Shown here: positions 16,443 through 51,760 of the stretch, in pieces
How positions within the stretch are numbered: the stretch's first letter is position 1
Layout of the letters: each line of letters starts with the position of its first letter
NCBI GenBank assembly: GCA_963799755.1
Contig: CAWCYQ010000015.1
Coordinates: 11,139 to 75,138, forward strand
DNA from: Terriglobia bacterium
Lineage (GTDB): Bacteria > Acidobacteriota > Terriglobia > Bryobacterales > Bryobacteraceae
DNA: 64,000 nucleotides
Reading direction: 5' to 3'
Position numbers and translations under genes: made by a program
The notes under the pieces: generated by a model
Database searches by the model: none
Told to the model about the DNA's origin: nothing
Seen by the model: only the letters and a program-made list of their open reading frames with translations

Positions 16443-17171
16443 ATGCCGAGTTCGAAGGAAGAGCCATTGGGGGCCATCGGTGTTCAAGTTGACGCGACGC
16501 CGGCGCAGCCTCCGCAGCGTGTCATCTTAACCGGAAGATTTGTCACTCTATGTCCGCTGGATGTGGCGCGTCATGGAAAGCGGCTGTACGCGCAATCCCA
16601 CGGTCCGGGCAGGGAAGCACTCTGGCGTTATCTGTCGGATGGCCCGTTTGAGGATTTTAGTTCGTTTTTAGCAGCGCTCTCGGCGAAGGCCGCTTCAGTT
16701 GACCCGCTATTTTTTGCAATTCTCGACACTGCCTCGGAAGAACCAGTTGGATACGCGGCTTTTCTCCGCATCGATCCCCTGAATCGAGTGATCGAAGTTG
16801 GCAGCATTCTGTATACTCCGGCGTTTCAGAAAACAGCCGGAGCGACCGAAGCCATGTACCTGATGGCGCGCTACGCGTTCGAGGAATTAAAGTACCGGCG
16901 CTATGAATGGAAATGCAATGCGCTGCACGAGGGATCGCGGCGGGCTGCCCTGCGCTTGGGATTCAAATTTGAAGGCACCTTCCGGCAACACATGATCGTC
17001 AAAGGGCGGAATCGAGATACGGCCTGGTTCTCCATGCTCGATACCGAATGGCCGACGCGCAAAGCGGCATTCGAGCGCTGGTTGGACCCTGCCAACTTCG
17101 ACTCCGCTGGAAAACAAAAGGAGCCTTTGGTCTGGCTCGGACATCCTGGTCAGGACAGCACGTCCTCATAA
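16443..17171 (+). CDS. GNAT-family N-acetyltransferase (RimJ/RimL-like)
   Basis: Motifs GYAAFLRIDPLNRVIEVGSILYTPAFQKTAGATEAMYLMARYAFEELKYRRYEWKCNALHEGSRRAALRLGFKFEG. Confidence 0.8.
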   Translation: MPSSKEEPLGAIGVQVDATPAQPPQRVILTGRFVTLCPLDVARHGKRLYAQSHGPGREALWRYLSDGPFEDFSSFLAALSAKAASVDPLFFAILDTASEEPVGYAAFLRIDPLNRVIEVGSILYTPAFQKTAGATEAMYLMARYAFEELKYRRYEWKCNALHEGSRRAALRLGFKFEGTFRQHMIVKGRNRDTAWFSMLDTEWPTRKAAFERWLDPANFDSAGKQKEPLVWLGHPGQDSTSS

Positions 17172-17177
17172 AATCCA

Positions 17178-17198
17178 CTTGCAAAACCCTGGGGAGTC
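17178..17198. repeat. left copy of a perfect 21-bp direct repeat, cttgcaaaaccctggggagtc
   Basis: Letter-by-letter identity with 21551-21571. The flanking bases differ on both sides. Confidence 0.9.
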
Positions 17199-17700
17199 AA
17201 ATTGTGTGTTGTTCTTGGTGGGGTGGTGAGGGGAAGTGAATAGAATAGAGTGTGTATGTTGTGATAGAGGAGCAGGTAAGTAGAGAGGCAGGGGATGATA
17301 AGGTTTGAACATTGTAGAGTTGATGTTGCAGTTATGAGGCAATAACTGACGCTAAGTGCTCCTCAGCTGGGATCACCAACTTAAGTGAGAGACTGATGAT
17401 GGAGTTTTTTTCTAAGGAGAAGTTAGTACTTAGGGTTCTAAGCTAACAGTTAGAGTCTAACTAAGGGAGAGAGAGGGTCATAGACAAGATCGGTCGAAAT
17501 ACACAATCAGCGGTGTCCTTCAGAAGGTATCTTCCTTGTACTAAAGGAGAAGAAGACATAACTAGCGGTAAAAGTGATCTGGGAATAGCTAAGAAGATAT
17601 ACTGAACTATAAAGCAATAAACGGGTAAAGGATATACTAGAGAGAAGAAGGGGAGAGGAGATACTGATAGAGAGTAGACTCAAAGATGAGGGAGATGATG
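17199..17700. other. strand-asymmetric C-depleted (G/A/T-rich) non-coding tract
   Basis: Hand count: 4 C in 17201-17320 and about 56 C in 17201-17700. Stop codons occur in all three + frames. The only - strand ORF is low-complexity. Confidence 0.8.
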
Positions 17701-17827
17701 CACACAAGAGCAAATCCGCGAAGCAGGTTAAGCTCTCTACGCAATGATCTGCTGACGCTTTCCTAGCACCGCAGCTTGTGCGCGTACATCCAGATTTCGC
17801 AGTCTTAGGTAGCACCTCTGAAGGTAT

Positions 17828-18262
17828 TCACATGCGCACATTCCCGCGTTCGTTTCGATATGGGCACATTTCAAAGTGCACGCTGCGCAAGTGCTTTTAG
17901 GCAAAGGGTTTAAGATTTTTGTGAGCTAGGAATAAGGGGATAGGGGCACTGGCCTCTTTTCTTCGCACAGACAAAGCTGCGCTGAGATACATCCCCATCG
18001 CTTCCATGAACTTACTCTCTGAGATTATTCGTGTTTCATCCTCCAAAACGGAGCATTCAAGCTCGATCTCGCCTATCCGTAACGGGGCCGTGCTTTCAGC
18101 AAGGGTAGGCAATTTTGGTCTACCGCCGGCGCGGACTTTGCGCTTGGCGTTGATCTCCGCGTAATATTCAGGGCCACGTTCTGCGGTTTTTGGCCTCCTA
18201 ACTTCCCGAGCTCGACAGCGGCGGAATTTTTTTGCTCTTCCGTCATAAATGTAATCTACCAC
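17828..18262 (-). pseudogene. P63C-domain-family (phage-type) protein, N-terminal part only, ended by in-frame stops
   Basis: GGRPKLPTLAESTAPLRIGEIELECSVLEDETRIISESKFMEAMG...APIPLFLAHKNLKPF matches the conserved N-terminal region of P63C proteins. There is a TAA at 17897 and a TGA at 17828. The same frame continues as ORF 17507..17815. Confidence 0.5.
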
Positions 18263-18803: not shown

Positions 18804-20078
18804 ATGACAGTTATCGACCTGTTTTGTGGGGCGGGGGGCATGTCCCTCGGCTTCAAGAGTGCTGGATTCCACTGCTTGTACGCTGCGGACAACAATGATT
18901 CGGCGGTTCAGACTTATCGGGCGAACGTCGGCAACGAGGCGCTATCCGCTGAGATTACGGAGTTTATCGACCTTCCATCGGCAGACGTCATCATCGGCGG
19001 CCCCCCCTGTCAAGGCTTTTCGTCTGCCGGAATGCGAAAGAATGGCGACCGCCGCAATAGCCTTGTATCTTGCTTCACAAAGCTAGTAGTAAAGCATCGC
19101 CCCAAGGCGTTTGTATTTGAAAATGTTGAGGGCTTTCTAACAGCTGAGGATGGCAGGCGCGTGTTTGAACTGCTGATACCTCTGATCGACGCCGGATACC
19201 GCATACACTTCAGAAAAATCAACGCCGCGAATTTCGGTGTGCCTCAACTTCGAAAGCGCGTTATCGCCACAGGCGGACTTGGATGGGACCCAACCTTCCC
19301 GGATTTCACGCACGCGGCATTTGGCGCACCAGGGGCGCGATTAGCTTCTCGGCACCTGTCGCCAACACCAACCCTGAGCGACGCGCTATTCGGACTACCA
19401 ACGCCAGCCACTGTGTCCCCTGGTGTGCCCCAGGGGCATTGGTACAAACCTCTCGCCGGTGTTGACCTGGAGCGGGCAATTGCGCTTTCCGAGGGTCATA
19501 GCATGCGTGATTTGCCGGAATCGTTGCAGCACCCAAGCTTCCGACGACGAGCGCTACGGCGGGTCATGGACGGCACCCCAACAGAGAACCGCGGCGGCCC
19601 ACCGTCAGGTGTCAGAAGGTTAATTGCTGACGAGCCATCAAAGGCAATAACCAGCTCAGCCATCACCGAATTTCTGCATCCGGCTGAGCATCGGGCTCTC
19701 ACAATCCGTGAATGTGCTCGGCTGCAGACCTTCCCTGATGATTTCGTATTTTGCGGAAGCATTGCTGAGCAAATCCAATTGATCGGCAATGCCGTTCCTC
19801 CGAGACTCGCCGAAAAAATTGCAAATACGTTAGCGCACGACCTTACCGTTGTGACAAGTGCTCCTGCTCAGGGCTCGCTTCTCTCATTTGTCCCGACGCT
19901 TTCTTCGGGTTTCAGTCCTGCGCTAAGGCAGGTGACCGATCTTGTAAACTCTACTTTTTGTGCGTCTGTGGTTGTGCAGAACACACTTCTGAATGACAGT
20001 ATGGCTCTATCTAAGATGCAGGAAAACCTCCTGACAAAAGCCTCACGGGTGGCGGTTCCGATTTGGCCGTTCCATTGA
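18804..20078 (+). CDS. dcm: DNA (cytosine-5)-methyltransferase
   Basis: Motif I DLFCGAGGMSLGF, motif IV GGPPCQGFS, motif VI FENVEGF, QLRKRV, and motif X GNAVPP. Confidence 0.9.
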   Translation: MTVIDLFCGAGGMSLGFKSAGFHCLYAADNNDSAVQTYRANVGNEALSAEITEFIDLPSADVIIGGPPCQGFSSAGMRKNGDRRNSLVSCFTKLVVKHRPKAFVFENVEGFLTAEDGRRVFELLIPLIDAGYRIHFRKINAANFGVPQLRKRVIATGGLGWDPTFPDFTHAAFGAPGARLASRHLSPTPTLSDALFGLPTPATVSPGVPQGHWYKPLAGVDLERAIALSEGHSMRDLPESLQHPSFRRRALRRVMDGTPTENRGGPPSGVRRLIADEPSKAITSSAITEFLHPAEHRALTIRECARLQTFPDDFVFCGSIAEQIQLIGNAVPPRLAEKIANTLAHDLTVVTSAPAQGSLLSFVPTLSSGFSPALRQVTDLVNSTFCASVVVQNTLLNDSMALSKMQENLLTKASRVAVPIWPFH

Positions 20079-21061
20079 ATCACGCCGCTGCTTTGTATTT
20101 GGTAGCTGTGACTGCCGACGACCTCGGCATCCGTCCCCATTTCCCAGAACTGCCAAAGACCGTGCCGTCATTTTTTGGAAAGCAGCCGCTCTCCGATCTG
20201 CGCATAGATGGCCAAGAATTTCGACCACTCTATGAGAGGCTGGTGCGATTATGCCGCGATGCGGATAGCTATTTCTTCTGCCTGGCAACGCTACACAAAG
20301 CTCGGTTAAAATACGAACGAATATTAGAATTGCAGTCCGTTCCGGTGATAGATCACGTGGGACCTCGCGGTCTGCTGCAATTCGGCGCTCTGAGTCCCCG
20401 TGCTTTGGCGGGTTTTCTATTCTGGCGCAAGTGGATGTACGATATCGACAACCGCGCCGCGCAAGAGACCGGGTATGTGTTCGAGCCGATATTAGCTCAC
20501 TCGATTGGGGGCGTTCCCTTCGGGGCGACGAGAAGTCCAATAAAGAGGCGCAAAGATGGTAGGGGCAGGCAGGTAGATTGCGTATGCGAACATGACAGGC
20601 TTGCCTATGAGTTCAAACTGCGGGTCACAATTGCCGCATCGGGTCAGGGTAGATGGGCCGAGGAGATCGACTTTCCCGGCGACTGCAAGGAAGCTGGTTA
20701 TAAACCTGTCCTGATCGTTCTGGACCCCACGCGAAATCCGAAGCTTGCCGAACTGTCGAAAGCTTTTCAATCGGCAGGCGGCGAATCCCACATAGGCGAG
20801 AAGGCATGGGAACACCTGCATGCCGCCGCAGGGAATACAATGTCCACGTTCCTGGAGCGATACGTCCACAAGCCAATTGATGCCCTTCTGAGCGAAGCAC
20901 CAAGCGAGCTGCCGGATATCCTTCTCCAAATGTCTGAGAGCGAGTTCCGCGTAACTGTTGGCGGCGAACTTTTTAGGGTTGGACGGGCAGGCAGCGACAG
21001 CAAACTTCCTTCGGAGCCAGATGCTCTCCCGGAAGATGTTGACGAACAACTTCCGGGTTGA
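20063..21061 (+). CDS. putative type II restriction endonuclease (PD-(D/E)XK candidate), family not recognised
   Basis: It sits between dcm and vsr and overlaps the dcm stop by 16 nt. The segment QVDCVCEHDRLAYEFKLR fits D-x10-E-x-K. Confidence 0.5.
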   Translation: MAVPLNHAAALYLVAVTADDLGIRPHFPELPKTVPSFFGKQPLSDLRIDGQEFRPLYERLVRLCRDADSYFFCLATLHKARLKYERILELQSVPVIDHVGPRGLLQFGALSPRALAGFLFWRKWMYDIDNRAAQETGYVFEPILAHSIGGVPFGATRSPIKRRKDGRGRQVDCVCEHDRLAYEFKLRVTIAASGQGRWAEEIDFPGDCKEAGYKPVLIVLDPTRNPKLAELSKAFQSAGGESHIGEKAWEHLHAAAGNTMSTFLERYVHKPIDALLSEAPSELPDILLQMSESEFRVTVGGELFRVGRAGSDSKLPSEPDALPEDVDEQLPG

Positions 21062-21066
21062 CAGAG

Positions 21067-21546
21067 ATGGCTGGGCGTTCAATACGGTCCCGAGCGCCGA
21101 AGGCTTCTAGCGAACTCGTACGCCATGTCATGCTGGCGAACTTCGGAACGACCAAGCCGGAACGCCGTTTGCGGAGCGCCTTACACCGCGCGGGCATCCG
21201 CTTTCGAGTAGACTGCAGGCCAATACCTGAGATAAGGTGCGCCGCTGATGTTGTGTTCCCACGGCAGCGGGTTTGTATTTTTGTAGACGGTTGCTTTTGG
21301 CACGGTTGCCCCATGCATTTTAGAGTGCCGAACACAAACGCTGACTGGTGGGCCGAAAAGATTCGGGATAATGCACGCCGAGATTCCGTGCAGACTCTGG
21401 CTCTCCAAAGGGCGGGCTGGGAAGTGGTGCGAATTTGGGAGCATGAATTGCGTACCGACGCTGGCATATGCAAAGTCGTATCCATGATTATGGTTAGAGT
21501 GACTCCACATCGCTCTTCGACGCATCGCACAGCAACACAGATTTAG
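21067..21546 (+). CDS. vsr: very-short-patch repair endonuclease
   Basis: Motifs TKPERRLRSALHRAGIRFRVD, VVFPRQRVCIFVDGCFWHGCP, NADWWAEKI..N..RD and GWEVVRIWEHE. An alternative TTG start at 21058 overlaps the upstream stop. Confidence 0.85.
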   Translation: MAGRSIRSRAPKASSELVRHVMLANFGTTKPERRLRSALHRAGIRFRVDCRPIPEIRCAADVVFPRQRVCIFVDGCFWHGCPMHFRVPNTNADWWAEKIRDNARRDSVQTLALQRAGWEVVRIWEHELRTDAGICKVVSMIMVRVTPHRSSTHRTATQI

Positions 21547-21550
21547 CGCC

Positions 21551-21571
21551 CTTGCAAAACCCTGGGGAGTC
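21551..21571. repeat. right copy of the perfect 21-bp direct repeat
   Basis: Identical to 17178-17198. Confidence 0.9.
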
Positions 21572-21842
21572 CTCACGGCCAAGCCGGCCTTTTTTACCGT
21601 TTCAAGCACCTCGGGAAGCACCTCCCTGCACTCGACCGATTCACACCTGTCGAGCAGATCGAATCGAGCGCGAAATTTCCAAGCGGCTCTGACGATCTGG
21701 CGCCGGTCTGAAAAAGTCCCACGCGCGAGAGCGAAAGTAGTCACGGCTAACCGAATTTTTTCACTTGAGCAATAACAGTGCTTTAGCGCTCTCGAGCGTG
21801 AAGAGCCGCTATCTTCAAATCGCAAAAGACCCGTAGTTACAG

Positions 21843-47214: not shown

Positions 47215-47452
47215 ATGTCGGGGCGGCGCAACGGGGGATGAAAACGGTATCGAGGAGCGATAGGCTGCTGGATGCCGGGAGCGGACAGAGGCCGTTATCA
47301 GTCTGGAGCTAGCAGCCCGCTTGTGAACTTGGCCCGGGCGCCGCAGTTTGTGCACGGCACAACGGATTGTGGCCTCTGCCGCGAGGCGGAGAGCACGTGA
47401 AGGAAAGTCGACGGTTTTCCAGGCGTCCCTTACTCGCGGCAAAGGAGGCGAT
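47215..47452 (+). ncRNA. candidate IS110 bridge RNA region (left-end non-coding)
   Basis: Its position upstream of the transposase is as in IS110-group elements. It contains tgtgaactt (47322-47330), identical to the 9 nt abutting the insertion point (47204-47212). No fold was computed. Confidence 0.3.
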
Positions 47453-48725
47453 ATGAAATTACTGTACCGCTGCTGTGCCGGATTGGATATTCACCGCGAC
47501 ACAGTCAGCGCGTGTGTGCGACGGCGCGTCCGCGGACAAGCGGAGGCGGCCATCGAAGAACAAGTGTTTGGCACCTTCACGCAAGAGTTGGAGCGCTTGC
47601 GTAACTGGCTGAAGAAGCATAAGGTCCGGCAAGTAGCTATGGAGTCGACGGGTGTGTACTGGATTCCGATCTGGAACGTACTCGAACGGAACAGCAGGTT
47701 CACTCTGACGTTGGTGAACCCAGCAACGGTGCGCGCTCTACAAGGTCAGAAGACCGATCGCATCGATGCGCGACGTATTGCCGAGTATCTGCAATACGGG
47801 CTGTTGCGGGGCAGTTTTATTCCACCGCCGCCCATCCGTCACTTGCGTGAGCTGACACGCATGCGAGTGCATATCCAGCAAGACCGCAACCGAGTGGTGA
47901 ACCGCATCGCGCGGCTACTGGAGACCGTAAACATCAAGCTGGCCTCGGTGGCTTCCCACATCGTGGGCACCAGTGGCATGGCAATGTTGCGGCTGCTGGC
48001 CAGCGGTATGCGCGATCCAGAACGATTGGCCGAATGCGCCCGGGGTCAGATGCGGATCAAGATCCCGCACTGATACTGGCGCTGGACGGCAGGCCGGACG
48101 AGCATTTCCGCTGGATGCTTGCGCAACTACTGGCCAAACTGGATCGCTTAGGCGAGGAACGGGCGCGAGTCGATGCGCGGCTTCAGGAACTGGCACTCCC
48201 CTTTGCCGATGTTGTACGTCGACTCTGCACGATCCCCGGCGTTGATAGCACGACCGCGCTGGTGCTGCTGGCCGAGTTCGGCACGGATATGACCCAGTTC
48301 CCGACAACGGCTCGCTTGGCGAGTTGGGCCGGGCTGTGTGCGGGAAACGCAGAGAGCGCAGGCAAGCGTTTTTCCGGACGGACGCGCAAAGGCGACCGTT
48401 ATGTACGGCGCAGCTTAGTGCAGAGTGCCTGGGCGGCGTCGCGCACCAAGGATTGTTTCCTGGCGCCTTATTCTTTCGCACTGCACAGCGCCGTGGCTTA
48501 AAGAAAGCTGCTGTCGCTGTGGCGCACCGGATATTGATGATTGCCTGGCACATCCTGGCCGAAGAAGGCGTTGAATACTATGAGCGCGGCGGTGATCACT
48601 TCGATCGCGCAACCGGAAGCACCGCGCGCAAATTGACGCGCAGATTGGAGGCATTGGTACCAGGTGACGCTGCTGCGCAAGCTAAATCGCCACGCGTGTC
48701 CGAAACGCTTGGTGTGTACATCTGA
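47453..48725 (+). pseudogene. IS110-family transposase with two frame breaks (CCC 48064-48066, GG 48462-48463)
   Basis: DEDD_Tnp_IS110 N-domain (CAGLDIHRDTVSAC...VAMESTGVYWIPIWNVLE). Transposase_20 region (LCTIPGVDSTTALVLLAEFGTDMTQFPTTARLASWAGLCAGNAESAGKR). The tail RRGLKKAAVAVAHRILMIAWHIL is in a third frame. AAAGGAGG precedes the ATG at 47453. Confidence 0.85.
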
Positions 48726-48845
48726 ATGGAAGTGGTGTTGGAAGTGTATGGAGAAAAAAAAAGAGGAAGTGACCGAACTTCCGGGTTCCTGCGAAATCAA
48801 ACTGCAACGAGAAGTTATTAGGTTAGAGAAGTAGAGTTTTAAAGG

Positions 48846-51665
48846 ATGAACGGAATATGCAGATCGTTAGGACTGGCGTTTGTGGGATTGTCTGTGGGAG
48901 TTTTCGGGCAGACCATCGACCTGCCCACCAGTAAGCAGATTCTCCCTGCGGTTCCCGGCAGCCCACAACGAATCAATAGCCTGCCGATATCCGTGGCAGT
49001 GTCGCCGGACGGACGCTATGTGGTGACCGTGAACGCGGGTTACGGCACATTCGAATCGAAGTACATGCAATCGCTGGCGGTGCTCGATACGCGCACGGGG
49101 ACAATCGAAGATTTCCCGGACGACCGTACTCCGCTGAAGGCAAAGCAGACGTTGTACTCAGGGCTGGCGTTCAGCCTCGATGGCAGTCATGTTTATGCCA
49201 GTATGGCTTCGCTCGCCGATCCACTGGGAAAGCACGAGGGTGACGCTGGCAGCGGAGTAGTCGTGTATGGCTTCCGTGAAGGAAAGATTGCTCCTGAGAG
49301 ATTGATGAAGATTCCCCTGCAGCAGCTTGCGGCAGGGAGGAAGACCCTGGTTGCAGGAGCGGAGAGCGACAAGGGTGTGCCGTATCCGGCAGCGATTGCG
49401 GTCATCGGGGATTCGAGCTCGGAGAAGCTGCTGGTGGCCGATAATCTCTCCGACGACGTGCTGCTGATGAACGCAGAGACAGGCGCGATTGAGCACAGAT
49501 TCGATCTGGCAGAGAATGATGCGGTGCCTTCGACGTATCCCATTGCGCTGAGCGTTGCGCAGGATGAGTCACGGGCGTTTGTGGCGCTGTGGAATGCGTC
49601 CGAAGCGGTTGAACTCGACCTGAAGAAACGGATCGTGGGGCGCAGGCTGGCACTCCTGAAGCCGGAGAGTGCAATTACGGCGGGCTCCCATCCCTGCGCG
49701 ATGGAGATTGCACGAGACGGCAAAACGATGTACATCGCGCTGGCGAACCGCGACGCTGTGGCGGCTGTAAACCTTGCCGGGAACCAGTTTTCGCTAAAAG
49801 GATATTTCGATACCCGGCTGCCGCATCAGAGCTACTTTGGCGCCGAGCCGGAGGCGCTGGCATTGTCCGCGGACGGGGCGCACCTCTACGTAGCCGATGC
49901 AATCACTGACGCGATTGCGGTAATGGATACAAGGAAGCTGACGGCGAAGGCAGCGAAAAAAGGAATGGCGGAGCCGATGGGTTTTGTACCGACCGAGTGG
50001 ATGCCGATGTCGTTGGCGTTCAGCGGAGGCAAACTCTACGTAGCGACGGCTAAGGGCAAAGGAACCGGACCGAACAATCTCGCACAGCGCCAGGCGGACT
50101 GGCAGAAGAAGCAGCGAACGAAGCCGAGTTCGTCGACCTATATCGCCACCCTTCTCTATGGCTCACTGGCGGTGCTCGATACAAAAGCGATGGAGAAGGA
50201 ACTGTCGAAATGGACCGGAGAGGTCGTCGAGTCGAACCGGATGAAAGCGGCGGAGGAGAAGATCCAGTTTGCCGCGGGTGGAGAAAGCCGTATCAAACAT
50301 GTGATCTACATCATCAAGGAGAACCGCACCTACGATCAGGTTTTCGGCGATTTGCGAAAAGATGGAAAGCCGGTGGGTAATGGCGATCCGAGCCTGACCA
50401 TGTACGGTGAGGAGATCACGCCAAACCAACATGCTCTGGCGCTGCGATTCGGCGTGCTCGATAACTTCTATGATTCGGGCGAGGTCTCCGGAGACGGACA
50501 TGTGTGGTCAACTGCAGCGATTGGAACCGACTACCTGGAGAAGACATGGCAACAAGGCTATCGGGGCGGTCAGCGCACCTATGATTACGAAGGCGTAGTA
50601 GCAGAGGGATACCCTCTGTTGCAGAAAATTCCGGACGTCAATGAGCCTGCGAGCGGATATCTGTGGGGCAATCTGGCGCGGCACGGCAAAACCTACTACC
50701 ACTTCGGCGAATTCATCTCCTCAGAGTTCTGCGATGTGAAGAAGAGCACAAGTTCGCAGGAAGGTCCGCTACTCGGGGGATTGCACTGTGACCGGCCGGC
50801 GATTCAGCCGGGAGAGGCGATCCCTGAGCAGTGGGGCGGCGGAGTGAACAAGTGGCCATGGGCGATTCCGCTCTTGGGGAGGAATATCGCAACCAAGTCA
50901 GAATTAGTGGGGCACTTCGCTCCGGAGGCGCCGGACTTCAACCTGCGGGTGCCGGACCAGATTCGGGTAGAGGTTTTTCTGCGGCACCTCAAGGAATGGG
51001 AAGCGAACCGCGAGAGCGGCAGGGACACGATGCCCAACTTCATCATCTTGCGCTTGAGCGACGATCATACGGCGGGAACGAAACCGGGAGGACCCACGCC
51101 ACGGGCGTCGGTTGCGGATAACGATCTTGCGATCGGGCGTGCCGTGGAGGCCGTGTCTCATTCGCCGTATTGGGACGACACGGCGTTCTTTATCCTCGAG
51201 GACGATGCACAGAACGGAGCCGATCACGTGGATGCGCATCGGAGCCTGGCATTGGTGATCAGTAAGTACTCTCCTCGGCGTGCGGATGGCGGCGTCTTTG
51301 TGGACAGCCGCTTTTATTCGACAGTGAGCGTGGTACGAACCATGGAGACGCTGCTCGGCCTGCCTCCGATGAATAACAACGATGCGTTCAGTTCGCTGAT
51401 TGGATCGCTGTTCACCGGGCCGGGAGACCAGGCTCCGTTCCCGGCGGACTACCGGAATCGCGACGATGGGTTGATCTATACAGCAAATCGTGAAAACGCG
51501 CCGGGCGCAAAGGAGTCGAGCAGGATGGACTTTCGTCATGCTGACCGGGCTGACGCGCAGAAGCTGAACGTGATTCTCTGGAAGGATGCAATGGGCGACA
51601 AGCCTGTTCCTCCGATGCTGTTGGAAAAGAGAAAAAAGGCGCGAAAGGATGATGACGGAGATTAA
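48846..51665 (+). CDS. secreted beta-propeller (YncE/lactonase-like repeats) fused to a phosphoesterase (AcpA/PLC family) domain
   Basis: Signal peptide. Repeated SPDGRYVV / SLDGSHVYA / ARDGKTMYIA / SADGAHLYVA blades. Phosphoesterase motifs follow: HVIYIIKENRTYDQVFGDL and EDDAQNGADHVDAHRS. Confidence 0.8.
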   Translation: MNGICRSLGLAFVGLSVGVFGQTIDLPTSKQILPAVPGSPQRINSLPISVAVSPDGRYVVTVNAGYGTFESKYMQSLAVLDTRTGTIEDFPDDRTPLKAKQTLYSGLAFSLDGSHVYASMASLADPLGKHEGDAGSGVVVYGFREGKIAPERLMKIPLQQLAAGRKTLVAGAESDKGVPYPAAIAVIGDSSSEKLLVADNLSDDVLLMNAETGAIEHRFDLAENDAVPSTYPIALSVAQDESRAFVALWNASEAVELDLKKRIVGRRLALLKPESAITAGSHPCAMEIARDGKTMYIALANRDAVAAVNLAGNQFSLKGYFDTRLPHQSYFGAEPEALALSADGAHLYVADAITDAIAVMDTRKLTAKAAKKGMAEPMGFVPTEWMPMSLAFSGGKLYVATAKGKGTGPNNLAQRQADWQKKQRTKPSSSTYIATLLYGSLAVLDTKAMEKELSKWTGEVVESNRMKAAEEKIQFAAGGESRIKHVIYIIKENRTYDQVFGDLRKDGKPVGNGDPSLTMYGEEITPNQHALALRFGVLDNFYDSGEVSGDGHVWSTAAIGTDYLEKTWQQGYRGGQRTYDYEGVVAEGYPLLQKIPDVNEPASGYLWGNLARHGKTYYHFGEFISSEFCDVKKSTSSQEGPLLGGLHCDRPAIQPGEAIPEQWGGGVNKWPWAIPLLGRNIATKSELVGHFAPEAPDFNLRVPDQIRVEVFLRHLKEWEANRESGRDTMPNFIILRLSDDHTAGTKPGGPTPRASVADNDLAIGRAVEAVSHSPYWDDTAFFILEDDAQNGADHVDAHRSLALVISKYSPRRADGGVFVDSRFYSTVSVVRTMETLLGLPPMNNNDAFSSLIGSLFTGPGDQAPFPADYRNRDDGLIYTANRENAPGAKESSRMDFRHADRADAQKLNVILWKDAMGDKPVPPMLLEKRKKARKDDDGD

Positions 51666-51680
51666 AGGGGCCCAAACGTG

Positions 51681-51760
51681 TGGAATGGAGGAGTAGGCGA
51701 TATTTTGCCGAGCCGTGACTATGATTTGCGAAAATCCGGTTTGCCGATGATTTAGGACCT
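51681..51760. repeat. uninterrupted paralogue of the element targeted by the IS110 copy
   Basis: 51681-51721 matches 47171-47211. 51727-51756 resembles 48790-48822, which lies to the right of the IS. Confidence 0.55.

Follow-up and report, generated by a model that had tools for sequence, protein, structure and literature searches.

Base-specific hypermutation is known from several systems. In diversity-generating retroelements (DGRs), the 3' end of a gene contains a sharply bounded region in which local substitutions affect a single base on a single strand. The positions that change are those with an adenine in the template repeat, and such variable regions typically have a length of ~100-150 bp. 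In fungi, repeat-induced point mutation (RIP) kills genes of mobile elements by dense base-specific mutation and leaves a compositional scar; this eukaryotic process acts on duplicated DNA, both strands of which acquire C->T transitions. In yeast, resection at breaks exposes single-stranded DNA in which strand-coordinated mutation clusters arise; such clusters are also found in cancer (kataegis-type) (PMC6786661). They affect one base type of one strand beside a DNA end or junction and are explained by damage to a long single-stranded tail and its error-prone refilling; most of the changes stem from deaminated cytosine (C->T/G in TpC) or from C that was alkylated, with ~1 change per 100-1000 nt (PMC6786661). 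Here, we describe a tract of 0.5 kb (positions 17199-17700) that is nearly devoid of C on the + strand and is located at the end of a mobile island. It is part of the window, the 64,000 nt (64 kb) of contig CAWCYQ010000015.1 from a Terriglobia bacterium that were analyzed and to which all positions refer. The tract is, almost certainly, what remains of the 3' half of a P63C-domain gene that is encoded on the - strand and is now dead, and most coding-strand guanines of this half were lost. We know of no bacterial precedent for such a one-strand G-loss mutation scar. While strand-coordinated hypermutation as such is known, the guanine-transversion spectrum, the near-saturation and the location at the end of a bacterial mobile island are new.

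The scar resembles each of these systems in part. The tract occupies the last ~50% of the P63C gene and runs through to its end, which is a DGR-like location. However, it is longer than a typical variable region, the affected bases are G and some A rather than template-repeat adenines, and the outcome is a pseudogene full of stops instead of an open frame that has been diversified. In addition, no template repeat was found in the 64 kb, and no reverse transcriptase was found among the scanned open reading frames (ORFs), these being 28 ORFs compared to Pfam (most of the longer ones in the window) and, by eye, the other ORFs of at least 100 aa between 14 and 32 kb. Kataegis-type clusters share the strand coordination and the position beside a DNA end, but their density is far lower, whereas the scar has lost ~75% of its G in a bacterium, with no C->T, with no sequence context and with G->T exceeding G->C, accompanied by some A->T. 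The same spectrum (G->T and G->C, purine->T, no excess of G->A) is caused by oxidized guanine and by abasic sites (the "A-rule"), but such events are dispersed, occur at low frequency and affect both strands, while the scar is a saturating one-strand tract of 0.5 kb. In contrast to RIP, the scar consists of one-strand transversions in a bacterium, and there is no duplicate copy in the window. Finally, sponge RNAs of the CsrB/RsmZ type are likewise purine-rich with AGGA-like words, but the scar has no GGA excess, no presentation of such words in hairpin loops, no fold signal and no Rfam match.

Composition and identity of the tract

An exact count of the + strand between 17201 and 17320 gave 32 A (26.7%), 4 C (3.3%), 49 G (40.8%) and 35 T (29.2%). 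This agrees with the hand count in the initial annotation, which had drawn attention to the scarcity of C directly after the left repeat of the island. For 17201-17700, the hand count of ~56 C is close to the exact value (54 C, 10.8%). The contrast to the flanks, also noted there, is borne out by an exact base count, the C fraction being 27.7% at 16700-17198 and 26.6% at 17701-18200. Among all 500-nt windows of the 64 kb, the one with the fewest C begins at 17199, ~6 standard deviations (SD) below the mean (C fraction 0.276, SD 0.028), while no G-, A- or T-poor 500-nt window of similar depth exists in the 64 kb. The GC skew reaches its maximum of +0.57 in the tract. At 17199-17263, there is 1 C per 65 nt. 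Stop codons are crowded in every + frame of the tract, as had been claimed. The 102-aa ORF at 17507-17815(-) did not match any Pfam family. Elsewhere in the window, C is also scarce at 48707-48923 and 51614-51735, but these purine-rich stretches resemble ordinary gene leaders.

Two statements on words within the tract fared differently. The tract was said to be packed with GGA/AGGAG words. These are present but are not enriched given the composition (GGA: 13 observed versus 15.9-16.9 expected; A.GGA: 6 versus 5.5-5.7). Three spaced copies of a GATATACT-like word had also been reported, and this word is indeed commoner than chance, with two exact copies and one near copy (GAGATACT) at 17597-17604, 17632-17639 and 17658-17665, compared to 0.0-0.3 in shuffled sequences. 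The copies stem from different ancestral codons, so that the recurrence is not inherited.

The identity of the tract was deduced from its neighbor, an ORF of 121 aa which matches positions 32-110 of the 338 positions of the phrog_2384 profile (E = 1e-11). PHROG 2384 is named "P63C domain-containing protein" in RefSeq phage records. A match at this position of the profile implies a full-length gene of ~1.0 kb, and this is the distance from 18246 to the end of the island. A search with a composite query retrieved many full-length homologs of 343-349 aa that contain PF10546, the closest being from Acidobacteriota-type metagenomes. The homologs extend beyond the stop codon of the ORF, and the - strand of the window follows them in broken frames. 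Family remnants in these frames are "KPFA*KHLRSVHFEMCPYRNERGNVRM*IPSEVLPK", "CEIWMYA" and "LLRGFALVCIISLIFESTLYQ" (family: "ILFRGFAHVGIVALIDEATGYQ"). Residues 170-223 of gp34 from phage Barco match 17726-17565 (tblastn, E = 2e-6), and residues 150-331 of a homolog with an intact gene (P0026) align to 17801-17277. At the DNA level, 17719-17264 aligns to the intact P0026 gene (nhmmer, E = 6e-17), and many further P63C genes match. Counted from the ATG at 18246, which is the true start, a gene of full length (~1.03 kb) would have had its ancestral stop codon at ~17230-17260, only tens of bases from the end of the island.

The pseudogene has deletions of 1-2 nt near 18191, 17803, 17779 and 17728, in its 5' half, whose composition is otherwise normal, and the first in-frame stop is at 17897-17899. 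Compared to three homologs, all internal indels are deletions in the pseudogene and there are zero insertions. With four small deletions and several in-frame stops in the 5' half and with dense stops in the 3' half, the reading frame is not intact and the gene must be considered a pseudogene. The tract is without function at present and represents a mutational scar. Among the earlier proposals, the one of a destroyed part of the neighboring P63C-like gene stands with respect to identity, on the basis of protein and DNA homology, but the affected part is about the 3' half and not two-thirds of the gene. The destruction is base-specific, coding-strand G having been lost, mainly to T or C. A function as stop-rich insulator DNA obtained no support, and the tract is foreign only in that it is part of the inserted island.

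Base-specific loss of guanine

The retention of each base was measured against the consensus of 12 homologs, with five intact homologs serving as leave-one-out controls. In the 3' part of the pseudogene, only 16 of 67 consensus G are kept (24%), with 30 G->T, 12 G->C and 9 G->A changes. The five controls keep 68-93% of their G, with 0-6 G->T, 0-6 G->C and 4-14 G->A changes. The other bases of the 3' part are much better preserved: A is kept at 43 of 64 positions (67%; 11 A->T), C at 37 of 45 (82%) and T at 42 of 56 (75%), compared to 78-93% (A), 70-96% (C) and 82-98% (T) in the controls. The 5' part of the same pseudogene keeps 55 of 68 G (81%). Thus, about three quarters of the coding-strand G in 17199-17700 have been replaced, about two-thirds of them by T and about a quarter by C, with G->A not in excess. 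About a quarter of the adenines in the tract have changed, mostly to T, while the conservation of coding-strand C and T equals that of the 5' half, which is unaffected. The same pattern is seen at high-confidence sites, which are dictated by amino acids with a conservation of at least 90% among the homologs: in the tract, G is kept at 6 of 20 such sites (the others being 9 T, 3 C, 1 A and 1 deletion), but C is kept at 18 of 19, T at 12 of 14 and A at 14 of 18 (3 to T). As a result of these changes, the aligned segment, which in homologs contains 125-142 G, ~101 T and 113-125 C, has 53 G, 167 T and 142 C. The tract carries a total of ~80-110 substitutions per 500 nt.

The onset of the G loss was located by alignment with three homologs in 90-nt bins. 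The identity at non-G sites is 0.56-0.79 across the whole gene. The identity at G sites is 0.57-0.81 down to the bin at 17712 and 0.00-0.47 thereafter. In a four-sequence MAFFT alignment, 0.69 of the consensus G are kept upstream (n = 158) versus 0.22 downstream (n = 112), and the maximum-likelihood change point of G retention is located between 17701 and 17696 (Fisher p = 2e-14). The inner boundary of the scar is sharp and is followed by a weak shoulder to ~17900 with a modest excess of G->T/C (Table 1). As judged by eye from the alignment, G->T changes in this shoulder gave rise to the stops that interrupt the frame of the 5' half (GAC/GAG->TAA, GGA->TGA, GAA->TAG and GAG->TAA). The outer boundary is the junction between the island and the repeat. 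The left repeat, directly beside the scar, has 6 C in its 21 nt and is identical at 21 of 21 positions to its partner 4.4 kb away; had the process reached the repeat, all six C would have survived with a chance of ~0.25^6 = 2e-4.

Among the mutated G, every codon position is affected and a neighbor context is not evident, so that selection at the protein level is not the cause. G followed by G was always mutated outside two patches that retain C on the + strand (~17335-17385 and ~17475-17548), but the numbers are small (16 of 16). Patchiness is weak, with 12 of 34 G kept inside the patches and 13 of 78 outside, and the spacing of C is near geometric. It was considered that the two patches are protected stems that pair with each other; their duplex energy is no better than that of shuffled sequences.

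Read on the + strand, C->A is much above C->G and is accompanied by T->A, while C->T is not in excess. Cytosine deamination (of the APOBEC, DddA or 5-methylcytosine type, or linked to Dcm) is excluded because C on the + strand has changed to A and G without an excess of C->T. Recombination with a naturally skewed paralog was also rejected, as stops fill the homologous frame of the tract, while the composition of intact homologs is normal.

Possible origins of the scar

The data show the base and strand specificity, the spectrum, the two boundaries and the lack of alternatives within the window. We consider damage to a single strand at a DNA end, followed by error-prone refilling, as the origin of the scar, and assign to this scenario a probability of about 0.4-0.5. 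As the scar does not extend past the junction into the repeat, the island DNA would have been hit prior to insertion or in the course of it, at a time when 17199 was a free or newly joined end. A process at the chromosomal site after insertion would fit less well. From the pattern, we infer a single-stranded state of this DNA, the kind of lesion (or of nucleotide pool imbalance), the type of polymerase and the timing, as follows. 5'->3' resection of the linear island end at 17199 would have left the - strand as a 3' single-stranded tail of ~0.5-0.7 kb. Purines of the tail, chiefly G, would have been turned miscoding or non-instructive, with oxidation products, abasic sites and an enzymatic guanine adduct as candidates. 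Starting at the junction and moving inward, a polymerase of low fidelity or of the translesion type would then have remade the + strand and would have placed A, less often G, opposite the damaged purines (the "A-rule"). The new + strand would have received A (~2/3) or G (~1/4) at template G and A at some template A, while template pyrimidines would have been copied correctly. Once fixed, this outcome would appear as G->T/C and A->T on the - strand, equivalent to C->A/G and T->A on the + strand. The sharp inner limit would mark where resection had stopped, the outer limit being the junction. G->T and G->C without G->A is the classical result of oxidized guanine (8-oxoguanine, hydantoins), of bulky N2-guanine adducts and of abasic-site bypass. 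Abasic-site bypass obeys the "A-rule", 8-oxoguanine leads to G->T, and hydantoins as well as bulky N2-guanine adducts lead to both G->T and G->C.

Several points weigh against this scenario. With ~75% of the G changed, the scar is orders of magnitude denser than any described cluster of single-strand damage. A strand bearing so many lesions should break, and such a density is hard to reconcile with survival. A mirror-image scar at the right end of the island was not seen, the Vsr ORF there being intact. Only one instance was found, and truncated P63C copies from metagenomes (L001, L002, L095 and L096) are normally composed, being ordinary frameshift or truncation pseudogenes. Random substitution leaves the recurring GATATACT word unaccounted for. 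On the basis of the sequence, an attack on - strand purines would look the same as one on + strand pyrimidines, and misinsertion driven by lesions would look the same as that driven by a skewed nucleotide pool.

The scar may instead have been formed gradually and in situ, after insertion, by a strand-asymmetric process (persistent single-strandedness, R-loops or a bias in transcription-coupled repair) that slowly stripped the coding strand of G. The island has parted the GNAT gene from its terminator, so that read-through from this gene (+) would converge with transcription of the P63C gene (-) over the tract. In transcription of the P63C gene, it is the - strand that is not transcribed, and, with transcription-coupled repair, mutations from purine adducts (G->T) build up on the non-transcribed strand. 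A pair of sigma70-like hexamers at 17147-17174(+) is directed into the tract, and terminator-like hairpins at 17876-17888 and 17942-17957(+) are close to where the G->T shoulder fades out; the shoulder itself could mean that the process was graded. However, such promoter and terminator matches occur at chance frequency, and the inner boundary is a step with no gradient. The scar halts at the island junction, although the adjoining repeat, which is also in the path of read-through, keeps its 6 C and its identity. The 5' half belongs to the same transcription unit but was spared. Moreover, the non-G sites of the tract are no more diverged than those of the 5' half, so that a gradual process would need a G-specific rate more than 25-fold over background. 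We therefore consider gradual decay an unlikely origin.

The DGR-like location could also point to a retroelement. In this case, the 3' end of the P63C transcript would have been copied by a reverse transcriptase with errors at template purines, far more often at G than at A, and the cDNA would have replaced the 3' half of the gene, similar to the mutagenic retrohoming of DGRs but with another base specificity. The geometry fits, with one base on one strand being affected at the 3' end of a gene and with a sharp 5' limit, and the direction proposed above for + strand synthesis, from the 3' end of the gene inward, is that of a cDNA. On the other hand, a reverse transcriptase is missing among the scanned ORFs, a second, unmutated P63C 3' half is missing from the 64 kb, the base that is hit is G and not A, and a product full of stops means that nothing adaptive has been diversified. 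Among ~90 related loci, there is no intact P63C gene with such a region. This makes an origin by reverse transcription quite improbable.

An even smaller probability is attributed to an artifact, in which case mis-assembly, amplification or sequencing chemistry, or a later alteration of the record would have created a tract that is not in the DNA of the organism. There is a single instance, neither the tract nor the 21-bp repeat has an exact match in the genome and metagenome collections, and the only other trace of the locus is one 82-kb NCBI contig. Confusion of G and T is an error type of some sequencing chemistries. Nevertheless, ~100 coordinated substitutions are not something that assemblers invent, and normal, intact genes flank the tract on either side. 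An artifact is unlikely, given that over 450 nt the one-base, one-strand changes do not bring the tract out of register with its homologous gene and that they stop exactly at a biological landmark. Also, the spectrum (G->T ~2.5 times G->C, with additional A->T and with C untouched) is unlike that of simple channel-failure models.

The initial proposal of a functional non-coding RNA, either a GGA-rich CsrA/RsmA sponge from the + strand or a C/U-rich, unstructured, anti-Shine-Dalgarno-like RNA from the - strand, can practically be dismissed, because the purine-rich + strand with its many AGGAG-like words and its one overrepresented 8-mer has counts of GGA, AGGA and A.GGA that do not rise above the composition expectation, is predicted to fold less well than shuffled sequences (minimum free energy, z = +1.19), has no Rfam family at the gathering threshold and only noise at E <= 10 (COG3860 with 14.9 bits versus a cutoff of 42.5 bits; HOTTIP_2), has only coding P63C genes as detectable homologs, and has a composition that can be derived entirely from a known ancestral coding sequence through the loss of G. 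Scans for tRNA/tmRNA and for tandem repeats were also negative.

Returning to end-associated damage and refilling, the sequence, if real, documents a mutational event of a type not known from prokaryotes, which affects the purines of one strand over 0.5 kb at the junction of a mobile element. Such scars could mark the entry of restriction-modification islands, for example via a resected linear intermediate and error-prone refilling. Alternatively, they could mark a guanine-directed attack on foreign single-stranded DNA. A more general possibility, which we regard as rather doubtful, is that bacteria, mobile elements or defense systems have a process that, at the ends of mobile or incoming DNA, hypermutates the G of one strand near saturation across ~0.5 kb. 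A guanine-targeting modifier of single-stranded DNA (of the ADP-ribosyltransferase or glycosylase type) in combination with translesion refilling may be responsible, or a purine-mutagenic reverse transcriptase. If such a process exists, the tract would be its first recognized genomic footprint and a prokaryotic counterpart of kataegis or RIP. If, however, the tract is an artifact or the result of slow local decay, it is just an unusual pseudogene. The approach may be of use elsewhere, as alignment with one base masked, together with per-base identity to intact homologs, reveals hypermutated relics that are missed by ordinary BLAST and that composition scans would take for genes of non-coding RNAs.

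The island, its borders and related loci

The island is inserted between exact 21-bp direct repeats just 3' of the gene for a GNAT acetyltransferase, and the P63C pseudogene forms its left end. The insert between the repeats has 4352 bp and contains, from left to right, the C-poor tract, the 121-aa ORF at 17897-18262(-), a cytosine methyltransferase, an ApaLI-like restriction endonuclease and a Vsr-type endonuclease (Table 1). An integrase or transposase was not found in the 4352-bp insert. The left flank codes for an ABC ATPase and an alpha-amylase-family enzyme in addition to the acetyltransferase, and the right flank codes for a glyoxalase and an MFS transporter. LeuRS, RodA/PBP and a TonB-dependent receptor are encoded farther out in the window.

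Table 1. Coordinates of the scar, of the island that carries it and of the adjacent chromosomal gene.
Feature	Position	Strand	Evidence and remarks
GNAT acetyltransferase, chromosomal flank of the insertion	16443..17171	+	intact, normal composition
Left repeat copy, CTTGCAAAACCCTGGGGAGTC	17178..17198	+	100% identical to right copy; all 6 C kept
Hypermutated tract: 3' half of the pseudogene plus ~30-65 nt of 3' flank	17199..17700	-	composition, homology, spectrum
Whole P63C-domain (PF10546 / phrog_2384) pseudogene, almost certain	17199..18246	-	ATG at 18246; homology
Shoulder of the scar, modest G->T/C excess	17701..17900	-	10/46 versus 5/68 transversions further upstream (columns with G in all three homologs)
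C-5 cytosine DNA methyltransferase	18804..20078	+	PF00145, E = 6e-65
Restriction endonuclease, ApaLI-like family	20063..21061	+	homologs carry PF09499
Vsr-type very-short-patch mismatch endonuclease	21058..21546	+	intact ORF, Pfam scan
Right repeat copy, right end of the island	21551..21571	+	exact repeat

In several respects, the island resembles mobile restriction-modification units, which are likewise small, carry M and R genes without an integrase or transposase, and are flanked by exact direct repeats at an intergenic spot after a gene (PMC2853133). Furuta et al. (2010) required a target duplication of >30 bp and an insert of <20 kb with R and M genes (PMC2853133). With 21 bp, the repeat of the island is below the 30-bp criterion of that study, and the island additionally has the P63C pseudogene and vsr. 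The endonuclease was not assigned to a family in the local Pfam scan, but its homologs are precomputed as PF09499 (RE_ApaLI). A protein identical to it (P0140) is known from one NCBI contig only. Relatives of the endonuclease with 61-63% identity occur with the M-R pair but lack the P63C neighbor. When the island was compared by BLAST to phages and plasmids, one 80-nt match to the methyltransferase was the only result. A 22-mer of the tract and the 21-bp repeat have no exact match in genome_contigs, and the repeat also has none in metagenome_contigs.

The ApaLI site (GTGCAC) occurs 6 times in the 64 kb, compared to 13.9 +/- 3.8 expected copies. One of these copies, at 17876-17881, is inside the pseudogene, ~175 nt from the boundary of hypermutation. 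Directly after the right repeat, at 21572-21600, the sequence CTCACGGCCAAGCCGGCCTTTTTT has a 4-bp GC stem followed by T6. This element may be the original terminator of the GNAT gene, which is now 4.4 kb away; read-through would enter the tract. A terminator scan that required at least 5 pairs did not call the element at 21572-21600.

Among the ~90 related loci, there is no second P63C-derived scar. In metagenomic contigs, truncated and frameshifted P63C genes are common, which is what the decay of prophage remnants would predict. Two of the loci have skewed tracts of another kind close to their P63C gene. In L087, a tract of 400 nt (1600-2000) with up to 58% G and with 6-10% C has internal repeats and is located ~1 kb upstream of the P63C gene on a contig that otherwise has 41% GC; homologs of this tract are absent from the fetched loci. 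In L013, a G-poor (10%), C/T-rich tract (1050-1300) begins ~75 nt past the P63C stop codon and contains a 25-nt direct repeat. It lacks a detectable homolog, and its strand polarity is that of the scar in the window.

With respect to other mobile elements, an ORF at 47348-48073 codes for a transposase of the IS110 family (DEDD_Tnp_IS110) which, with 241 aa, is probably truncated.

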